Origin: Sphingomonadaceae bacterium
GTDB lineage: Bacteria; Chloroflexota; UBA6077
DNA: 38,349 nucleotides
Assembly: GCA_050261575.1 (NCBI GenBank)
Contig: JBLNDL010000057.1
Location: forward strand, 62,001-100,349
Direction: 5' to 3'
The translations under genes were made by a program, and so were the position numbers. Below the pieces are notes generated by a model that ran no database searches, was not told the origin of the DNA, and saw only the letters and a program-made list of their open reading frames with translations. This document shows, piece after piece, positions 1,106-7,425 of this stretch (position 1 is its first letter; each line of letters begins with the position of its first letter).

Positions 1106-3318
1106 TCCTCTAGAATCACATCCAGGTTTCCCGCGTTGCGCACGTCGACCTGCACCTTCCCGCTATCCCTCACGAAGGCCAGGTCCAACAGGCTACCGCC
1201 TACCCGCAGCCTCCGCAGGGTCAGGCGGTTGAGCCAGGAGGGCAAAACCGGCTTCACGTAGAGCACCGCTCGGGTCGCATCGGGCCGCAAACCGAGCGTC
1301 TGCTGAAGCATCAGGAACACCGAAGCTGCGGACCACGCCTGCGGGCTGCACGACACCGGGTATTGGGCGGGCATCGAGTAGTAGTGCCGGTCGCGGTCGA
1401 ACCCGCAGTACAGCTCGGGCAGCCGGTACCCGTCAAACCTCAAGCCCGCCTCGTACACCTCGGTGAACAGGCGGGCCGCCTCCTGCTCGTAGCCGTACCT
1501 CCTCAGCCCCGCCATGATCAGCGAGTTATCGTGCGGCCACACCGAGCCGTTGTGGTAGCTCATCGGGTTGAAATTGGGCTCGAGGCTGCTCATGGTCCGT
1601 ATGCCCCAGCCGGACAGCATGTCCGCCGCCATCAGCCGCTTCACCACCAGAGACGCCTTGTCCACAGAAAGGACACCAGACCAGAGACAATGCCCGGGAT
1701 TGGATGTTACCACGGGAACGGCTCTTCCGCCTACGTCGAGGGCCTGAGCGAGATACTGTTCTTCCTCCAGCCAGAACCGCTCCTCGAACCGCGCCTTGAG
1801 AGCCGCCGCCTCGGCCAGCAACTCCTCCGCACGGCTAGCCTCCCCCAATCCTGCCAGCAGCTCCGCCACCCTCACCCGGGCATCGTAGGCATACCCCTGC
1901 ACCTCCACCAGGGCTATGGGGGGCTCCACTGGCGTCCCGTCGCGCCAGCACACCGAGTTGGCGGAGTCCTTCCAACCCTGGTTCCTGATACCCCGCTCGG
2001 ATCGGCTCTTGTACTCGATGAAGCCGTCACCGTTCAGGTCGCCGTGCCGCCGAACCCACTCGAGGGCCCGCTCCATCGGCTCCCGAAGCTCGGCAACTAG
2101 GCTCCAATCGCCCGTCCACCTCACCAACTCGCTCAGCAGGATGAGGAAGAGCGGAGTGGCATCGACCGTCCCGTAGTAGGAGTCGTGCGGGACCTCACCC
2201 AACTGTGCCATCTCGCCCAGCCGAATCTCGTGGAGTATCTTCCCAGGCTCCTCGTCGCGCCAGTCATTGAACTCCGAGCCCTGGTACTCGGCCAGCAGCC
2301 GCAGGCTGCCGTAGGCAAGCTCGGGCTGCAGCATCAGCGACTGATAGGAGGTGATCAGGCAGTCGCGCCCGAAAGGCACGCAGAACCAGGGGATACCGGC
2401 CGCCGGCAGCCACCCCGTCGGCAGCTCGTTGACCAGCAGCCGCAGATCGCTGAGGGAACGGTGCACCAGGGCGTCGAACAGCTCGTTGTCCGATGAGATC
2501 GCCGTGCAACTGTCGATCCACTCCTGATGGGATCGGGCGACCGTCGCGTATTCCACGTCCAAAGGCACCACGCTGGCGGCCAAATCGCCCACGAGGGGCT
2601 GGATGTGCAGGGTAATGAAGACCGGCTGGCGTGGGGGCAGGGTGAAACGGTAGCAGGCAACCGCGTGAGGGGGGCGCACCCGCTGCTCGAACCTGGGATC
2701 GCGAGGATCGGTCCAGGCCTCGGGGCGATGCTCCTCGTCGCCAGGGCAGATCTCGATGTCCGTCGGGTCGCTCTCGAAGCTGATCTGGGTCCTCCGGATC
2801 ACCCCATCCAACCCCCGGTAGTTCAGCCAGATCGTTCGCCCCTCCACGGTCGGCTCGGCAACCACCCCATGCCTGGACCTCGTGGCATAGCCCCGTACGT
2901 CGAACATGTCACGGAAGTCCGAGCCGAAGGCCAACCTGACGGTCAGATCCACCGGGAACGGGTTGAAGCTGAAGAAACCGATACGCTCGTGGAGCCCATC
3001 GCGGATGAACCGGTTGCGGCGAACGCTGATGGTGCGAGCCTCGATGGGAGTGCCATCACGCAGCGCGCCGGGGTTATTGGTGAACTGCAGGTTGCCCATG
3101 AAGCTCTGATCGCCGGCCGCGGAGAGCAGGGAGATGGACACCTCGTCGAGGCTCATCTCGTACATGCTGAGGAATCGGGTGTCCCGGAAGTACAGCCCCT
3201 GCCCCTCCATGCTGAGGGCATGGATGTCCCCCCCGATGTCGCACACCAGGAAGACTTCGTTCTCTTTCAGAACGGTCCGGCTATCGAAGGATAAGGCGGT
3301 TCTGTGATCGGTAGACAT
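1102..3318 (-). CDS. Amylo-alpha-1,6-glucosidase / glycogen debranching enzyme-like (GDE_N_bis + GDE_C)
   Basis: 738 aa; motifs GLYFRDTRFLS, AGIPWF..FGRD, EEPGKILHE, YYGTVDATPL, NQGWKDS, YHNGSVWPHDN, CSPQAW. Confidence 0.9.
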   Translation of the reverse strand: MSTDHRTALSFDSRTVLKENEVFLVCDIGGDIHALSMEGQGLYFRDTRFLSMYEMSLDEVSISLLSAAGDQSFMGNLQFTNNPGALRDGTPIEARTISVRRNRFIRDGLHERIGFFSFNPFPVDLTVRLAFGSDFRDMFDVRGYATRSRHGVVAEPTVEGRTIWLNYRGLDGVIRRTQISFESDPTDIEICPGDEEHRPEAWTDPRDPRFEQRVRPPHAVACYRFTLPPRQPVFITLHIQPLVGDLAASVVPLDVEYATVARSHQEWIDSCTAISSDNELFDALVHRSLSDLRLLVNELPTGWLPAAGIPWFCVPFGRDCLITSYQSLMLQPELAYGSLRLLAEYQGSEFNDWRDEEPGKILHEIRLGEMAQLGEVPHDSYYGTVDATPLFLILLSELVRWTGDWSLVAELREPMERALEWVRRHGDLNGDGFIEYKSRSERGIRNQGWKDSANSVCWRDGTPVEPPIALVEVQGYAYDARVRVAELLAGLGEASRAEELLAEAAALKARFEERFWLEEEQYLAQALDVGGRAVPVVTSNPGHCLWSGVLSVDKASLVVKRLMAADMLSGWGIRTMSSLEPNFNPMSYHNGSVWPHDNSLIMAGLRRYGYEQEAARLFTEVYEAGLRFDGYRLPELYCGFDRDRHYYSMPAQYPVSCSPQAWSAASVFLMLQQTLGLRPDATRAVLYVKPVLPSWLNRLTLRRLRVGGSLLDLAFVRDSGKVQVDVRNAGNLDVILEE

Positions 3319-3378: not shown

Positions 3379-4044
3379 CTACGAGGCTGGACCCTCCAAG
3401 TCCGGACACAGGTCCAGCAACTCGCGTATCGACCGCAGCGCGAAATCCGGCTTGTATTCCAAGAGTGGCTCCTTCGGGAAGGGGCCCCAGAGGGCGGCAG
3501 CCACCTTGGTGCCCGCTTCTCGCCCCGCCTTCATGTCGAATAGGCTGTCCCCCACGTAGAGGGTCTCCTCTGGACGAGCCCCCAGCAGCTCGATGCCTCG
3601 AAGGATCGGCTCCGGATGGGGCTTGTGGTTGGTCGTGTCGTCGACGCAGACGAGTGGCTCCACCAGTTGCTGGAGCCCGTACAGCCCCATGCCTCGCAGC
3701 GCGGTGTTGCGCTCCTTGGATGTTACCACCCCCATCGGGTAGCCGCGACGCTTCAACTCCACGAGCACCTCCACGGTGCCTGGAAACGGCTTGATCAGGC
3801 TGTCGTGCAGCTCCTCCTGGACATTCCGCCACAGGACGAACATCTCGTCGATGCGATGCCGCAGTTCGGGGTACAGCCTCCACAACTGATCCCTCAGCGG
3901 CCTGCCGAAGCCCTTCAGGATCTCGGCGTCGGTCGGCGGATTCTCCACCAGCCTGCTGACGCTGTTACGATAGCAACTGAGGATCAGGTCCGTGGTATCG
4001 ATAAGGGTCCCATCCAGATCGAAAAGCAGATATCTGATTGCCAT
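3379..4044 (-). CDS. HAD-superfamily hydrolase, PpaX/phosphoglycolate phosphatase-like
   Basis: FDLDGTLIDT (motif I), VVTSK, KPHPEP, YVGDS..D. Confidence 0.9.
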   Translation of the reverse strand: MAIRYLLFDLDGTLIDTTDLILSCYRNSVSRLVENPPTDAEILKGFGRPLRDQLWRLYPELRHRIDEMFVLWRNVQEELHDSLIKPFPGTVEVLVELKRRGYPMGVVTSKERNTALRGMGLYGLQQLVEPLVCVDDTTNHKPHPEPILRGIELLGARPEETLYVGDSLFDMKAGREAGTKVAAALWGPFPKEPLLEYKPDFALRSIRELLDLCPDLEGPAS

Positions 4045-4056
4045 CTTCCTACTGAC

Positions 4057-5343
4057 TCACTGCATCAACTCGCGGCGACGGATCACCTGCCTCCGGCTGG
4101 CCCCCACCCCGACGACGTCCACCGGGACTCCCAGCAACTCCTGGAGCCGAGCCAGGTACCGAGTGGCCGCGGGCGGAAGGGACTCGAAGCCGCGAACATC
4201 CGCGAGGGAGCTATCCCAGCCTTCCATCGTCTCGTACACCGGCTGGCATCGGCCCAGATCATCCGGGTCGGCCGGAACGTAGTCGATCACCTTGCCGTCC
4301 AAGCGGTAGGCCACGCAGATCTTGATCTCGGGCAGCTCGTCCAGCACGTCCAGCTTGGTGACCGCTATCGAGGTGAAGCCGTTGACGCGAGCGGAGTGAG
4401 CGCCCGCCACGGCGTCGAACCAACCGCACCGCCTCGGCCTGCCTGTGGTTGTGCCGAACTCGTGTCCCCTCTCCCTGAGCCGATCCCCAGTCTCGTCGTG
4501 CAACTCCGTAGGCATCGGCCCGCCGCCGACACGGGTGCAGTAGGCCTTGTAGACGCCGATGGCGACGTCGAGCTGGGTGGGGCCGATTCCAGCCCCGAGG
4601 CACAGTCCGGCCACCGTAGGGGAGGAGGAGGTAACGTAGGGATAGGTGCCGTGGTCGGGGTCCAGCATCGTTCCGTGAGCCCCCTCCAGCAGGACGTTTC
4701 GCTTCTGCTCGATGGCTTCGTGGATGATGGGACCGGTCTCCTTGATGTAGGGTCTGAGCCGAGCGGCGTAACCTGCGAATGCCTCCATCATGGACTCCAG
4801 GTCGAAGGGCTCAGCCCCATATACCCTGGTCAAGAGGGCGTTCTTCGCCGCCAGAACCCGCGCCAGCTTGGTCCGGAAGCTGTCGATGTCCATCAAATCG
4901 CCGACCCTCAGGCCATCGCGGGAGGTCTTATCCATGTAGGCGGGGCCGATGCCTCGCCCTGTCGTGCCTATGCGGCCCGCGCCGCGCCCTTCCTCCTGCA
5001 GCCTGTCCAGCAGCAGGTGGTAGGGCATGACCATGTGCGCCCTGTTGCTGATCACCAGTCCCGAGGTGTTTACCCCCCGCTGGAGCAGTCCATCCAACTC
5101 CTCCAGCAGGATCGCGGGATCCAGCACCACACCCGGTCCCACCACGCACACCGTGGACGGATTGAAGATGCCCGCCGGCACCAGATGCAGCGCGAACTTC
5201 CCCTGTTCGTTGACCACGGTGTGCCCGGCGTTGTTGCCACCGTGGGATCGGATGACCACGTCCGCCTGCTGTGCAAGCAGGTCGATCACCTTCCCTTTGC
5301 CCTCGTCACCCCATTGGCCGCCGACTACGCCCACGATAGCCAT
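4057..5343 (-). CDS. purA: Adenylosuccinate synthetase
   Basis: QWGDEGKGK, GGNNAGHT, GTTGRGIGPAY, DHGTYPYVTSS, EFGTTTGRPRRCGW. Start ATG 5343 with SD GAGGGGAG. Confidence 0.98.
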   Translation of the reverse strand: MAIVGVVGGQWGDEGKGKVIDLLAQQADVVIRSHGGNNAGHTVVNEQGKFALHLVPAGIFNPSTVCVVGPGVVLDPAILLEELDGLLQRGVNTSGLVISNRAHMVMPYHLLLDRLQEEGRGAGRIGTTGRGIGPAYMDKTSRDGLRVGDLMDIDSFRTKLARVLAAKNALLTRVYGAEPFDLESMMEAFAGYAARLRPYIKETGPIIHEAIEQKRNVLLEGAHGTMLDPDHGTYPYVTSSSPTVAGLCLGAGIGPTQLDVAIGVYKAYCTRVGGGPMPTELHDETGDRLRERGHEFGTTTGRPRRCGWFDAVAGAHSARVNGFTSIAVTKLDVLDELPEIKICVAYRLDGKVIDYVPADPDDLGRCQPVYETMEGWDSSLADVRGFESLPPAATRYLARLQELLGVPVDVVGVGASRRQVIRRRELMQ

Positions 5344-5545
5344 TCGCGCCGCTCCCCTCTGCCCGCCTCGCGCAAGCACTGATGATCTTCGTCCACGCAG
5401 TGCGAGAGGGACCGTCAGCCCGCCGGACGCGCCGAGCACCCACCGGGGGTTCCCCCTGGGCAGGCGGATGCGTGCACGCCACAATTAGGGGCCGGCACGA
5501 TGCCGACCCCGGTAGGGCCTTCGAACTGGCCCCTCTTCTGCCGAC
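5344..5545 (-). promoter_or_regulatory. Long structured 5' leader of purA (candidate cis-regulatory RNA)
   Basis: Several nested stems readable by eye (see findings), lying between an extended -10 and the purA SD. Confidence 0.55.
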
Positions 5546-5550
5546 TAGCT

Positions 5551-5559
5551 ATTATATCA
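5551..5559 (-). promoter_or_regulatory. Extended -10 promoter element (TGA-TATAAT) for purA
   Basis: Perfect TGnTATAAT in 67%-like GC context, about 205 nt upstream of the purA ATG. Confidence 0.7.
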
Positions 5560-5605
5560 CAGCGACGCTCTCCGCCCTTCCAACTCCTCACCTTCGTTGC
5601 ACGGC

Positions 5606-5980
5606 TCACGAATGGCGTGGCATCTCCTCGCCCTCCCTGGGGGTCAGCCCCTCTCCAACCCCTGGCGGTGCCGCATCGAGCACGTTCCCTCGCGGGTCGT
5701 TCTCTTGGCCGAAGGCACCCTGATCGTATGCCTCGTCCCCGGCGCCCGGACGGGACTCCCCCCATCCCTCTCCGACCAGCTCCGACCATGCCTCGGCGCT
5801 AACGTCCTCCTGCGCCACGACGTTCGAGCCCGGAGGCAGATGCTCGTCCCCGGTCGCCACGAAGGGACCGTTTTCGGGGTGGTCAAGATCGAAGTAGACC
5901 TGGCCTGGCTCCAATCGGATGCGGCGCCGTCCTCGCAACTGGGCGGCCGTTGCCCTCTCCGGGGTCTCACCCTGTGCCAC
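5606..5980 (-). CDS. Hypothetical acidic protein (~124 aa)
   Basis: GTG 5980 preceded by SD GGGAGG. Protein-like core GQVYFDLDHPENGPFVATG. The longer ORF start overlaps the upstream gene. Confidence 0.65.
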   Translation of the reverse strand: MAQGETPERATAAQLRGRRRIRLEPGQVYFDLDHPENGPFVATGDEHLPPGSNVVAQEDVSAEAWSELVGEGWGESRPGAGDEAYDQGAFGQENDPRGNVLDAAPPGVGEGLTPREGEEMPRHS

Positions 5981-6045
5981 TTGCGCGCCTCCCTCATCAC
6001 GGGATCTGAGCCGCCGCCCGCAGTTGCTGCGCCTGGGCGGGGCGC

Positions 6046-7425
6046 TTAGCGGAAGCGGGGCAATAACTGTGCCCCCCGGCGCCAGACCCCAAGGCACAGC
6101 AGGGCGAAGAGGGGCAGGTACTCCAACGCCCTTACCCAGACCCAGAGGGAGGAGCCCACTCGAGGCAGGTAGGTCAGATCCGTCAGCGTGACGGACCCGG
6201 AGAGAAGCAGCCATCCCAGCGACGGCTGCAGCCGTGGAAGGGCGTTGCGTCCCGAGGCGAGGGTGAAGCTGAGGAACGGCACTATCCAGGTAAGGTACCA
6301 GGGCTCGACCACCGGGTTAAGCAGCAAGAAGAGACCGAGCAGCACGTAAGTATCCACCAGCAGCCGCTTCCAGTCCGCCCCATGCTTCCACAGCAACCCC
6401 AGCAGCAGCGTGCCGGACAGCAGTAGCAGCCCTCCGGCCACGACTCTGGCCGCTGACTCGGAGTCGGGTACCATCCGATCCAGAAGTCGTACCAGCAGGT
6501 AGCCGAAGCTGTCGTTGAACCGGGCATCAGCGGCCTCCGCCAAGATTCCGCCGGCAGCCGTCCCCGCCCCCAGCCACGGCAGCAGCCCCGTGGCCGTCAC
6601 CAACCCCATGGCCACGAGACCGCTCACTCCCCAAAGCGGCAGGAAGAGCGGAGCCAAGATCACCGGAACCAGCTTCACCAGCACGGAGACACCCAAGAGT
6701 GCACCGCTCAGCGCCTTCCTTCCCAGAGCAACCAGGTAGAGTGCCCCCAGGAGCGGCAGGACCATGGCGGCATCGTAGTGGGCGCTGTGTGCGAACTGGA
6801 GCAAGACCAGCGGGTTCCAGGCGTAGACCAGCACCCTGCGGCGATCCACGCCGAAGCGAGCCAACATGGGGATCAGCAGAAGGACGACCCCCAGATCGAA
6901 TGCCACGGCCATCACCTGCATCGCCTTCAGGCTGTCGGGCGCCAGCCTGTAGGCCAGGGCGAAGAGCGCCTCCGCCATCGGCGGATAGGGGGTGGCCATA
7001 GACTTGTGGTTGATGCCCTCCCACAGGTCATCACGCAGCGACTCCAGTTCGGGGGCCACGGGAGGATAGCGGTAAGGATCGAGCCCGGCGTTCAGCAGCT
7101 TCCCGTCCCACACGTAGCGGAAGACGTCATCGGACAGGCTCGGAGTGGTGGCCAGAAGTCCCACACGGAGTAGTACAGCCACCCCGAGGACGAGCACCAG
7201 ATCGCCCGCCCACCCCGGGCTCTCCGTCCGCCGCTGCTCCCGCGCAAGCACCGCCATCACGGCAAGCAAGTAGAAGCCGAACGAGACCAAAAACCACGCG
7301 GCGTGTCGAACGAGGTCGGCTCCGGGGGCAAGACGCAGGGCAGCGACCACGTAGCTGCCGATACCGCAGCCGCACAGCAGCAACAACACTCGGAATCTGA
7401 TTGGGGAAGACAAGAGACTCGTCAC
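6046..7425 (-). CDS. Membrane glycosyltransferase, GT-C fold (GT87/mannosyltransferase-like)
   Basis: LSDDVFRYVWDG, YPP, YAWNPL, H.D, VEPWY motifs; many TM helices. Confidence 0.85.
   Translation of the reverse strand: MTSLLSSPIRFRVLLLLCGCGIGSYVVAALRLAPGADLVRHAAWFLVSFGFYLLAVMAVLAREQRRTESPGWAGDLVLVLGVAVLLRVGLLATTPSLSDDVFRYVWDGKLLNAGLDPYRYPPVAPELESLRDDLWEGINHKSMATPYPPMAEALFALAYRLAPDSLKAMQVMAVAFDLGVVLLLIPMLARFGVDRRRVLVYAWNPLVLLQFAHSAHYDAAMVLPLLGALYLVALGRKALSGALLGVSVLVKLVPVILAPLFLPLWGVSGLVAMGLVTATGLLPWLGAGTAAGGILAEAADARFNDSFGYLLVRLLDRMVPDSESAARVVAGGLLLLSGTLLLGLLWKHGADWKRLLVDTYVLLGLFLLLNPVVEPWYLTWIVPFLSFTLASGRNALPRLQPSLGWLLLSGSVTLTDLTYLPRVGSSLWVWVRALEYLPLFALLCLGVWRRGAQLLPRFR

Follow-up and report, generated by a model that had tools for sequence, protein, structure and literature searches.

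A promoter-anchored, terminator-like hairpin in the purA leader of an uncultured Chloroflexota family

What kind of element is the leader of purA, the gene of adenylosuccinate synthetase, in an uncultured member of the Chloroflexota? The question is raised by a stretch of 38,349 nucleotides (the window; C57:62001-100349, on one contig of a 3.72-Mb assembly in 103 contigs), in which purA, on the minus strand, is preceded by a leader of about 200 nt. The original prediction, made from this DNA alone, described the leader as a riboswitch-like structure of several helices outside the known RNA classes, and proposed that it senses a purine or binds a protein and controls translation by masking the Shine-Dalgarno (SD) sequence. 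We found that the promoter, a 10-bp hairpin (P2), and the tail behind it were conserved among relatives, that the rest of the leader was not, and that P2 is terminator-like. We infer that termination or pausing occurs at P2 and that it is regulatory.

Seven family-level purA leaders were compared, namely that of the window, those of two genomes (G002, locus L002, and G001, locus L003), and those of four metagenome contigs (L116, L127, L118, and L145). purA was found in 38 of 41 related genomes. The GTDB family of the window (f1) holds four other species (G001-G004). G002 and G001 both retain the purA gene start, and their PurA proteins are 82% and 77% identical to that of the window. G003, whose purA 5' end is lost at a contig edge, and G004, which gave no purA match in a genome 64% complete, were left out. 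The metagenome contigs were scanned with the family-specific PurA start MA[IV][IV][GA]VVG[GA]QWGDEGKG as DNA, which returned 52 loci, five of them family-level over the full PurA (L116 79%, L127 77%, L118 77%, L145 76%, and L130 75%). L130 was left out with only 78 nt of upstream sequence, as was L138, which had 79% identity but across 24 residues only and an AT-rich coding upstream region. A PurA tree left the family largely unresolved and supported only the pairs L002+L116 and L003+L130, so the seven usable leaders represent about six lineages.

The purA promoter, the P2 hairpin, and the rest of the leader

The TGaTATAAT placed ahead of the leader by the original prediction was found at 5559-5551 of the minus strand, as part of an extended -10 promoter, CTGTGATATAAT (5551..5562; TATAAT 5556-5551, TG 5559-5558). 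An extended -10 promoter of the form CTRTGNTATAAT was present in all seven leaders. No -35 box was evident at purA, and the transcription start was predicted from the -10 box to lie at about 5545-5543. These data therefore support the view that purA is served by an extended -10 promoter of its own and that its leader measures about 200 nt.

Downstream of the promoter, the GC-rich hairpin P2 (GGGGUCGGCA-UCG-UGCCGGCCCC; 5488..5510, minus strand) is followed by the tail UAAUUGUGGCG (5477..5487), in which an A/U-only pentamer stands directly after the GC stem. P2 together with this tail, or a close variant of it, was found in six of the seven leaders, the exception being L118; the leaders stand for no fewer than five purA lineages. 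The consensus reads GGGGYCGGC, a loop of 3-5 nt, and GCCGRCCCC, with the tail U..UUG.G nearly fixed. Aligned over 37 columns, the six sequences had a mean column identity of 82% and 16 invariant columns; the tail positions T27, T30, T31, G32, and G34 were invariant. In the stem, 95% of the 60 pair cells were paired, compared with 35-58% when the partner was slid by 1-3 columns. Pair 5 varied between U-G, C-G, and U-A, and pair 9 went from C-G to U-A, giving two pairs changed on both sides; the covariation score was equalled by 19 of 500 shuffles. Pair 5 was a U-G wobble in three of the six sequences, and because of these wobbles and the variable loop length P2 is more likely an RNA hairpin than a DNA palindrome. 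P2 alone folded with -19.2 kcal/mol, and its pairs had probabilities of 0.65-1.00 in the ensemble of the window. The hairpin, listed by the original prediction as one helix of a larger fold, is thus a real and conserved RNA element.

R1, a covariance model built on P2 and its tail, scored 52.4 bits at the P2 of the window (E 1.4e-12) and found no second P2 site in the window's genome, where the next matches reached about 20 bits at most (P2's own reverse strand at 20.1 bits, and 17.8-bit matches in sequence read as coding). In the order (39 genomes) and in the class (66 genomes), R1 exceeded 40 bits only at the purA leaders of the window's genome, G002, and G001. A regulon was rejected, since the motif has no second significant copy in the genome and stands ahead of no other gene. 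The distance from the -10 box to the start of P2 was 40 nt in the window, 37 in L002, 34 in L116, 30 in L127, 52 in L145, and 39 in L003, and that from the tail to the ATG was 133, 35, 30, 41, 64, and 181 nt in the same order. P2 is therefore anchored to the promoter (30-52 nt) and not to the ATG (30-181 nt), which fits a role at the level of transcription or of the 5' end, and not one tied to the SD sequence.

The segment between the -10 box and P2 forms a second local hairpin, P1, in the window (GGGGCC-AGUUCGAA-GGCCCU; 5514..5533, minus strand; stem 5533-5528 with 5519-5514), with ensemble pair probabilities of 0.91-0.99. A hairpin at this place was found in all six P2-bearing leaders, and the sequences differed. 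The P1-P2 segment of the window (5477-5544) had a z of -2.66, with 2 of 200 shuffles as stable, and the P1-P2 segments beat their shuffles in five of the six leaders (z -1.85 to -4.60). A weak closing helix, P0, may also form between the tail and 5543-5536 (CGGCAGAA). This helix was predicted in the window, where it has two G-G mismatches, and in L002 and L116; three one-sided changes keep its pairing, all of them transitions and all in L116. The tail has other partners in L127, L003, and L145, where it pairs with the bases immediately 5' of P2. RNAalifold on the window, L002, and L116 returned a three-way junction P0-P1-P2 of 23 pairs, four of them changed on both sides, in which P1 was retained with two to three pairs changed on both sides. 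The consensus of all six P2-bearing sequences held P2 only. The junction between P1 and P2 varied (ACC, GUU, or GCU), and so did the loops. L118 lacks P1 and P2 and carries in their place (1351-1465, minus strand) a hairpin of about 26 bp that consists of GCGAGAA/GCGAGCA heptad repeats with their complement and has GUUUUAGGAGG behind it. This replacement had a z of -3.81 and gave spurious matches to miRNA models in Rfam.

The larger fold fared differently. All six proposed helices were at their places, and 42 of 42 base pairs were standard. The pairs of the closing helix, GAGGGGCC (5535-5528) with GGUCCCUC (5413-5406), do exist, but its ensemble probability was 0.01 and P1 replaced it, although the 5' domain folded with -67.7 kcal/mol as first proposed versus -65.2 kcal/mol with the local hairpin in place of the closing helix. 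The 5' strand assigned to this long-range helix is the 5' strand of P1, a local hairpin that relatives keep with differing sequences. The riboswitch-like architecture was not supported. The nested arm (5480-5426) likewise exists as pairs, at ensemble probabilities of about 0.4-0.57, but had no counterpart in L002, L116, or L127. A variable linker (5361..5476, minus strand) carries this arm, the closing helix's 3' strand (5420-5406), and the anti-SD sequence UCCCUCU (5411-5405). In a multiple alignment, window positions 5476-5372 had no counterpart in L002, L116, or L127, and the flanks of P2 could not be aligned. Conservation among homologous leaders was thus found for the 10-bp hairpin alone and not for the fold.

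The whole leader (5340-5550) folded with -105.9 kcal/mol, compared with -100.8 +/- 5.0 for shuffles (z -1.02, 29 of 200 as stable). The linker from 5344 to 5476 had a z of -0.16 (80 of 200), the SD hairpin region 5344-5420 a z of -0.42 (59 of 200), and the nested arm 5426-5480 a z of -1.89 (7 of 200). Folding beyond chance was found only at the 5' end of the leader. A repeat or mobile element was rejected as the identity of the leader, the 232-nt sequence having no second copy in the genome by blastn-short, with the longest other match 22 nt at 91%.

A proposed leaky terminator or pause site ahead of purA

We propose the following reading of these data. Transcription of purA starts from an extended -10 promoter that belongs to this gene (5562-5551). 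The beginning of the transcript, about 70 nt, forms a promoter-anchored module made of the variable P1, the stable and conserved P2, and the A/U-rich tail, and the 115 nt or so behind it are a species-specific linker that folds at chance level. P2 and its tail would act as a static hairpin of terminator-like form whose U tract is interrupted, and RNA polymerase must pass it for purA to be expressed. P2 would then be a leaky intrinsic terminator or a pause site, in other words an attenuator without a sensor encoded in the RNA, and would either set the level of the purA transcript or allow its tuning by elongation factors or by the supply of nucleoside triphosphates. Judged from sequence comparison, this is the account of P2 and its tail that we favour, tentatively and with somewhat more doubt than belief.

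Several observations bear on this proposal. An attenuator calls for a stable, GC-rich stem-loop downstream of the promoter and ahead of the start codon, and P2 provides one in six leaders. The second-tier matches of R1, at 25-31 bits, were GC hairpins of the P2 sequence type (such as GGGGCCGGC-loop-GCCGGCCCC, then CUUUUUGUGGCG, UUCUUGUGGCG, or UUCCCUUGUGGCU), with U-rich tails ending in UUGUGGCG; two of them, L193 and L180, have an in-frame stop codon at most about 25 nt upstream, the frame being read by eye. Read from their sequences and flanks, these matches in sister genomes look like intrinsic terminators of the lineage. Perfect GC hairpins with U-rich tails in the window's genome look alike, with tails such as ttttcttgtg and ttttgctgtg. 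L118, which has no P2, bears the alternative hairpin of about 26 bp and then GUUUUAGGAGG, and the same genome offers a precedent in promoter-proximal U-tract hairpins before an EF-G/LepA-type GTPase gene and before nusA. Read-through of the tail must occur in at least some relatives, because the 35 nt (L002) and 30 nt (L116) that remain before the ATG leave no room for a second promoter.

The promoters of the window's genome give a context for the leader. TGNTA[TA]AAT sites numbered 80, against about 23 expected from base composition by our own arithmetic, and promoters with an extended -10 box seem to prevail in this genome; several of these sites sit directly ahead of tRNA-like sequences. 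A general habit of 5' hairpins behind promoters was ruled out, in that the leaders at 70 TGNTATAAT sites had a mean GC-corrected stability residual of -0.40 kcal/mol, with a standard deviation of 4.77 for random 70-mers. By GC-corrected stability, the purA leader (its initial 70 nt) ranked third of the 70 sites, and ranks 1, 2, and 4 were hairpins with clear U tracts at most 100 nt from the promoter. TGCTATAAT promoters followed by strong U-tract hairpins were located at C13:44781-44900 (L203), C93:25641-25740 (L202), and C19:22229-22130 on the minus strand (L204). The genes behind them are nusA (NusA_N, KH_5), an EF-G/LepA-type GTPase (GTP_EFTU, EFG_C), and an unknown open reading frame (ORF) of 213 aa. 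None of the three leaders matched Rfam; they look like leader attenuators, and that of nusA may be autoregulatory.

More distant purA leaders of the Chloroflexota (51-59% identity; L124, L148, L153, L156, L125, and L010) carry a -10 (TATAAT) box and, behind it, a hairpin with a true U tract such as CACGCAUGGUUUUUUUGUGUGUGC, which in L124, L148, L153, and L156 lies about 68-70 nt before the ATG. Across 156 purA upstream regions, which include one G037 locus without such a site, terminator-like sites numbered 32 in the sense direction, a count that includes terminators of the upstream genes, compared with 11 in antisense and 7.2 +/- 2.5 in shuffles.

A number of points weigh against a terminator or pause. 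The U tract is poor, with 4 U in 8 (UAAUUGUG) and two A's that break it (UAAUUG), and a terminator scan with a threshold of at least 5 U in 8 directly after the stem found no site in 5000-6300. An all-A/U pentamer followed the stem in none of the 916 perfect 9-bp GC hairpins of the genome, which makes the purA tail atypical. No conserved antiterminator was found: pairing of the 5' strand of P2 with upstream bases in nascent transcripts gained -3.0 to -10.5 kcal/mol, and shuffled upstream sequence equalled this gain in 18, 56, 130, 136, 198, and 58 of 200 trials for the six leaders. With no antiterminator beyond what shuffles give, a regulated RNA switch is not visible. The sequence of the P2 stem is also more conserved than a generic terminator needs, which hints at sequence-specific recognition, and the data set is small, with seven leaders and a tree that is mostly unresolved.

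The proposal has parallels among known systems. In leader attenuators without a sensor in the RNA, such as those of Bacillus subtilis pyrG and Escherichia coli pyrBI and pyrE, the polymerase itself or the coupled ribosome is the sensor. The purA leader resembles them in having a promoter-proximal hairpin of the terminator type before a gene of nucleotide biosynthesis and no aptamer. It differs in that it has no G run at the start site, no conserved leader peptide, and no conserved antiterminator, in that its U tract is interrupted, and in that termination at purA is our proposal. Intrinsic terminators with weak U tracts that are stimulated by NusA or NusG, including those in leaders of nusA operons, share with P2 a strong GC stem and an imperfect U tract. 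The nusA and GTPase leaders of this genome have clear U runs (CUUUUUUGUUG and CCCCUUUUCUC), whereas the purA leader has none.

Rival roles for the leader

Protection of the messenger was the strongest competitor of the leaky terminator or pause, and we regard it as possible, at a distinctly lower probability. P0, P1, and P2 would keep the 5' end of the transcript paired and guard purA mRNA from decay that depends on the 5' end (by RNase J or a similar enzyme), as the 5' hairpin of ompA and the STAB-SD of cryIIIA do, and an SD-like AGAGGGG near the 5' end may contribute. RNase J is encoded in the genome (631 bits, above the cut-off), as is Rho, and in all six leaders a predicted stem, P0 or P1, starts near the seventh base after the -10 box, the start site itself being predicted. 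The anchoring of the module to the promoter and not to the SD, the lack of a proper U run in the tail, and the absence of an antiterminator, as expected for a static element, also agree with it. An SD-like purine run (AGAGGGG, AAGGGG, GAAGGG, or GAGGG) occurs near the 5' end of most leaders; the AGAGGGG of the window lies far upstream of the real SD, as in STAB-SD, but is buried by pairing within P1. A stabiliser needs neither a conserved 3' tail nor a conserved stem sequence, yet P2 and its tail are the best conserved parts, and the TGNTATAAT leaders, no more structured on average than random sequence, reveal no general habit of this kind. Recognition by a protein would account for just that conservation: a regulatory or ribosomal protein would read the P2 stem and tail and control termination, stability, or translation. 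The stem GGGGYCGGC/GCCGRCCCC and the tail hardly vary, whereas P1 and the linker differ altogether from leader to leader; loop and junctions may vary freely, as in many protein-bound hairpins. Such an operator is rather improbable, given that the motif has no second copy and hence no regulon, that the neighbourhood holds no candidate regulator gene and the genes upstream of purA differ among relatives, and that L118 manages without P2. Reading the inverted repeat 5510-5488 as a palindromic repressor site in the DNA, a roadblock downstream of the promoter, would likewise explain a conserved, near-perfect repeat 30-52 bp downstream of the -10 box. This is very improbable: T opposite G at pair 5 breaks the symmetry of DNA and keeps the wobble of RNA, the half-sites are 3 to 5 bp apart depending on the leader, the genome has no second site, and the conserved tail is one-sided. 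Equally improbable is a leader peptide whose translation, through small frames across P1 and P2, would couple the ribosome to termination. In L002 and L127 an ATG right after the -10 box opens a frame of 20 or 16 codons that ends at the UAA of the tail, with a UUG adjoining, and the purA frame of the window can be read upstream without a stop as far as UUG 5484, just past an in-frame UAA (5487-5485). The first frame is found in two of six leaders only, and in the window the second codon is TAG, with no later start; the ATG of L002 stands directly after TATAAT and most likely upstream of the start site. The UUG has no preceding SD, the peptides are not conserved, the phase of the second frame relative to purA differs (0, 2, 1, 2), and open frames are expected at 66% G+C. 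The same UUG gives purA an ORF of 475 aa. An N-terminal extension of PurA from it was rejected, because the frames vary among relatives and the shared start is MAIVGVVGGQWGDEGKGK; high G+C most likely left this frame open by chance.

Translational masking and ligand sensing, the roles given to the leader at the outset, ranked between the protein operator and these last two. The purA SD, AGAGGGGAG (5352..5360, minus strand), belongs to a G-rich SD found 15-17 nt ahead of the ATG in all seven leaders. The parts of the proposed mutually exclusive switch do exist, AGAGGGG occurring twice (at 5536-5530 and within the SD) and UCCCUCU at 5411-5405, and in the minimum free energy structure of the window the SD pairs with 5411-5405, but the arrangement is not conserved and the alternative closing helix had a probability of 0.01. 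The mean probability of the SD being unpaired was 0.29 in the window, 0.63 in L002, 0.58 in L116, 0.18 in L127, 0.45 in L145, 0.50 in L003, and 0.72 in L118, and its pairing partner was different in each of the seven. Conserved sequestration of the SD was rejected on this range of 0.18-0.72 and on the absence of the anti-SD and its surroundings from L002, L116, and L127, the first two being the closest relatives. A species-specific version, in which UCCCUCU pairs with the AGAGGGG of the SD and lowers purA translation while the 5' copy of AGAGGGG could compete, agrees with the low accessibility of the SD in the window and with the energy of the closing helix (-67.7 versus -65.2 kcal/mol). With an SD hairpin region that folds at chance level and a 5' copy locked away by P1, we consider it improbable. 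As for ligand sensing, Rfam 15 was searched with the window at the gathering score, with 5200-5800 at E up to 10, and with the six relatives' loci at E up to 1. No family, the purine, ZTP, ykkC/PRPP/ppGpp, 2'-dG, and xanthine riboswitches included, matched anywhere in the window at gathering; the single match in 5200-5800 was ftsZ-DE on the opposite strand (16.9 bits versus a gathering score of 72.2), and the relatives' loci gave eight weak matches, none on P1-P2. The leader could indeed not be assigned to a known RNA class. No work on a purA leader RNA, or on a purA riboswitch in Chloroflexi, was found among titles and the opening parts of abstracts. A new riboswitch class, in which either P0-P1-P2, as a three-way junction some 67 nt long (5543-5477), or the larger fold of the original prediction would bind a purine-related ligand and control read-through, draws on the RNAalifold junction with its four pairs changed on both sides, on the lack of an Rfam family, on the P1-P2 segments that beat their shuffles, and on a size and gene context that recall the purine riboswitch. 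The leader shares with the purine, ZTP/pfl, and PRPP/ykkC riboswitches this gene context, a length of about 70 nt, and a three-way junction that is possible in three of six leaders. It is unlike them in having no covariance-model match even at E up to 10, variable junctions and loops, and a single helix common to six leaders. A conserved aptamer with fixed unpaired nucleotides and covarying helices was not found across the relatives, and no conserved junction or loop nucleotides suggest a binding pocket. The junction is not common to the leaders, since the tail pairs elsewhere in L127, L003, and L145; P0 has its G-G mismatches, and its one-sided changes, all transitions in one sequence, are weak evidence. 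With P2 alone surviving in the six-sequence consensus, no alternative for an expression platform beyond chance, and no other gene preceded by the motif, we hold a new riboswitch class to be unlikely, slightly more so than the masking. The leader is thus unlikely to be a ligand-sensing riboswitch or a conserved SD-sequestering switch, and no new riboswitch class is opened on present evidence.

In sum, a leaky terminator or pause ranked ahead of a 5' stabiliser, followed by a protein-bound hairpin, SD masking, a riboswitch, and, level with each other, a leader peptide and a DNA operator. A more speculative and improbable idea is that P0-P1-P2, at about 67 nt, is a small purA-specific sensor of one uncultured Chloroflexota family, either a three-way-junction aptamer or a terminator whose read-through depends on ATP/GTP or an elongation factor. 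In its terminator version, the tail UAAUUGUGG, which contains A and G, would link read-through to the supply of ATP/GTP or to an elongation factor.

The purA locus and the meaning of its leader

The purA gene (4057..5343, minus strand; ATG 5343-5341) encodes adenylosuccinate synthetase of 428 aa, which matched Pfam PF00709 (Adenylsucc_synt) at 2e-178 over profile positions 2-416 of 416. Among the matches listed, its relatives in named public genomes were metagenome-assembled genomes of the Chloroflexota/Dehalococcoidia, at no more than 59% identity. The sole gene following purA encodes a HAD-family phosphatase (3379-4044, minus strand) and begins 12 nt past the purA stop; the two are probably co-transcribed. 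The phosphatase is PpaX-like, at 195.6 bits, under the cut-off of 218. Upstream of purA, a same-strand ORF (5606..6214, 202 aa) ends 44 nt before the promoter box. Neither Pfam nor NCBIfam gave a match for it; about 130 residues at its C-terminal end (72-200; window 5606-6000) are 62-63% identical in G001 and G003, and weaker paralogue-like matches were seen at other sites of the window's genome. A multi-pass membrane protein of 459 aa (6046-7425, minus strand) may be a glycosyltransferase of the GT-C type. It had no Pfam match, and its likeness to the mannosyltransferase MptB reached 18.4 bits, with a cut-off of 40.

The comparison carries a lesson for such leaders. At 66% G+C, an attractive multi-helix fold complete with an SD/anti-SD pair arises by chance, and only the promoter-anchored part survived comparison with relatives. 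If the small P0-P1-P2 sensor were real, it would couple expression of the AMP branch to purine nucleotide balance without a classical aptamer. If P2 is a leaky terminator or pause, it would add purA to the genes under promoter-proximal hairpin control in the Chloroflexota and would be a small, clean case of a terminator with a broken U tract in a phylum of high G+C where genetics is almost absent. Taken with the U-tract hairpins of the more distant leaders, promoter-proximal termination may be a common means of purA control in the Chloroflexota.

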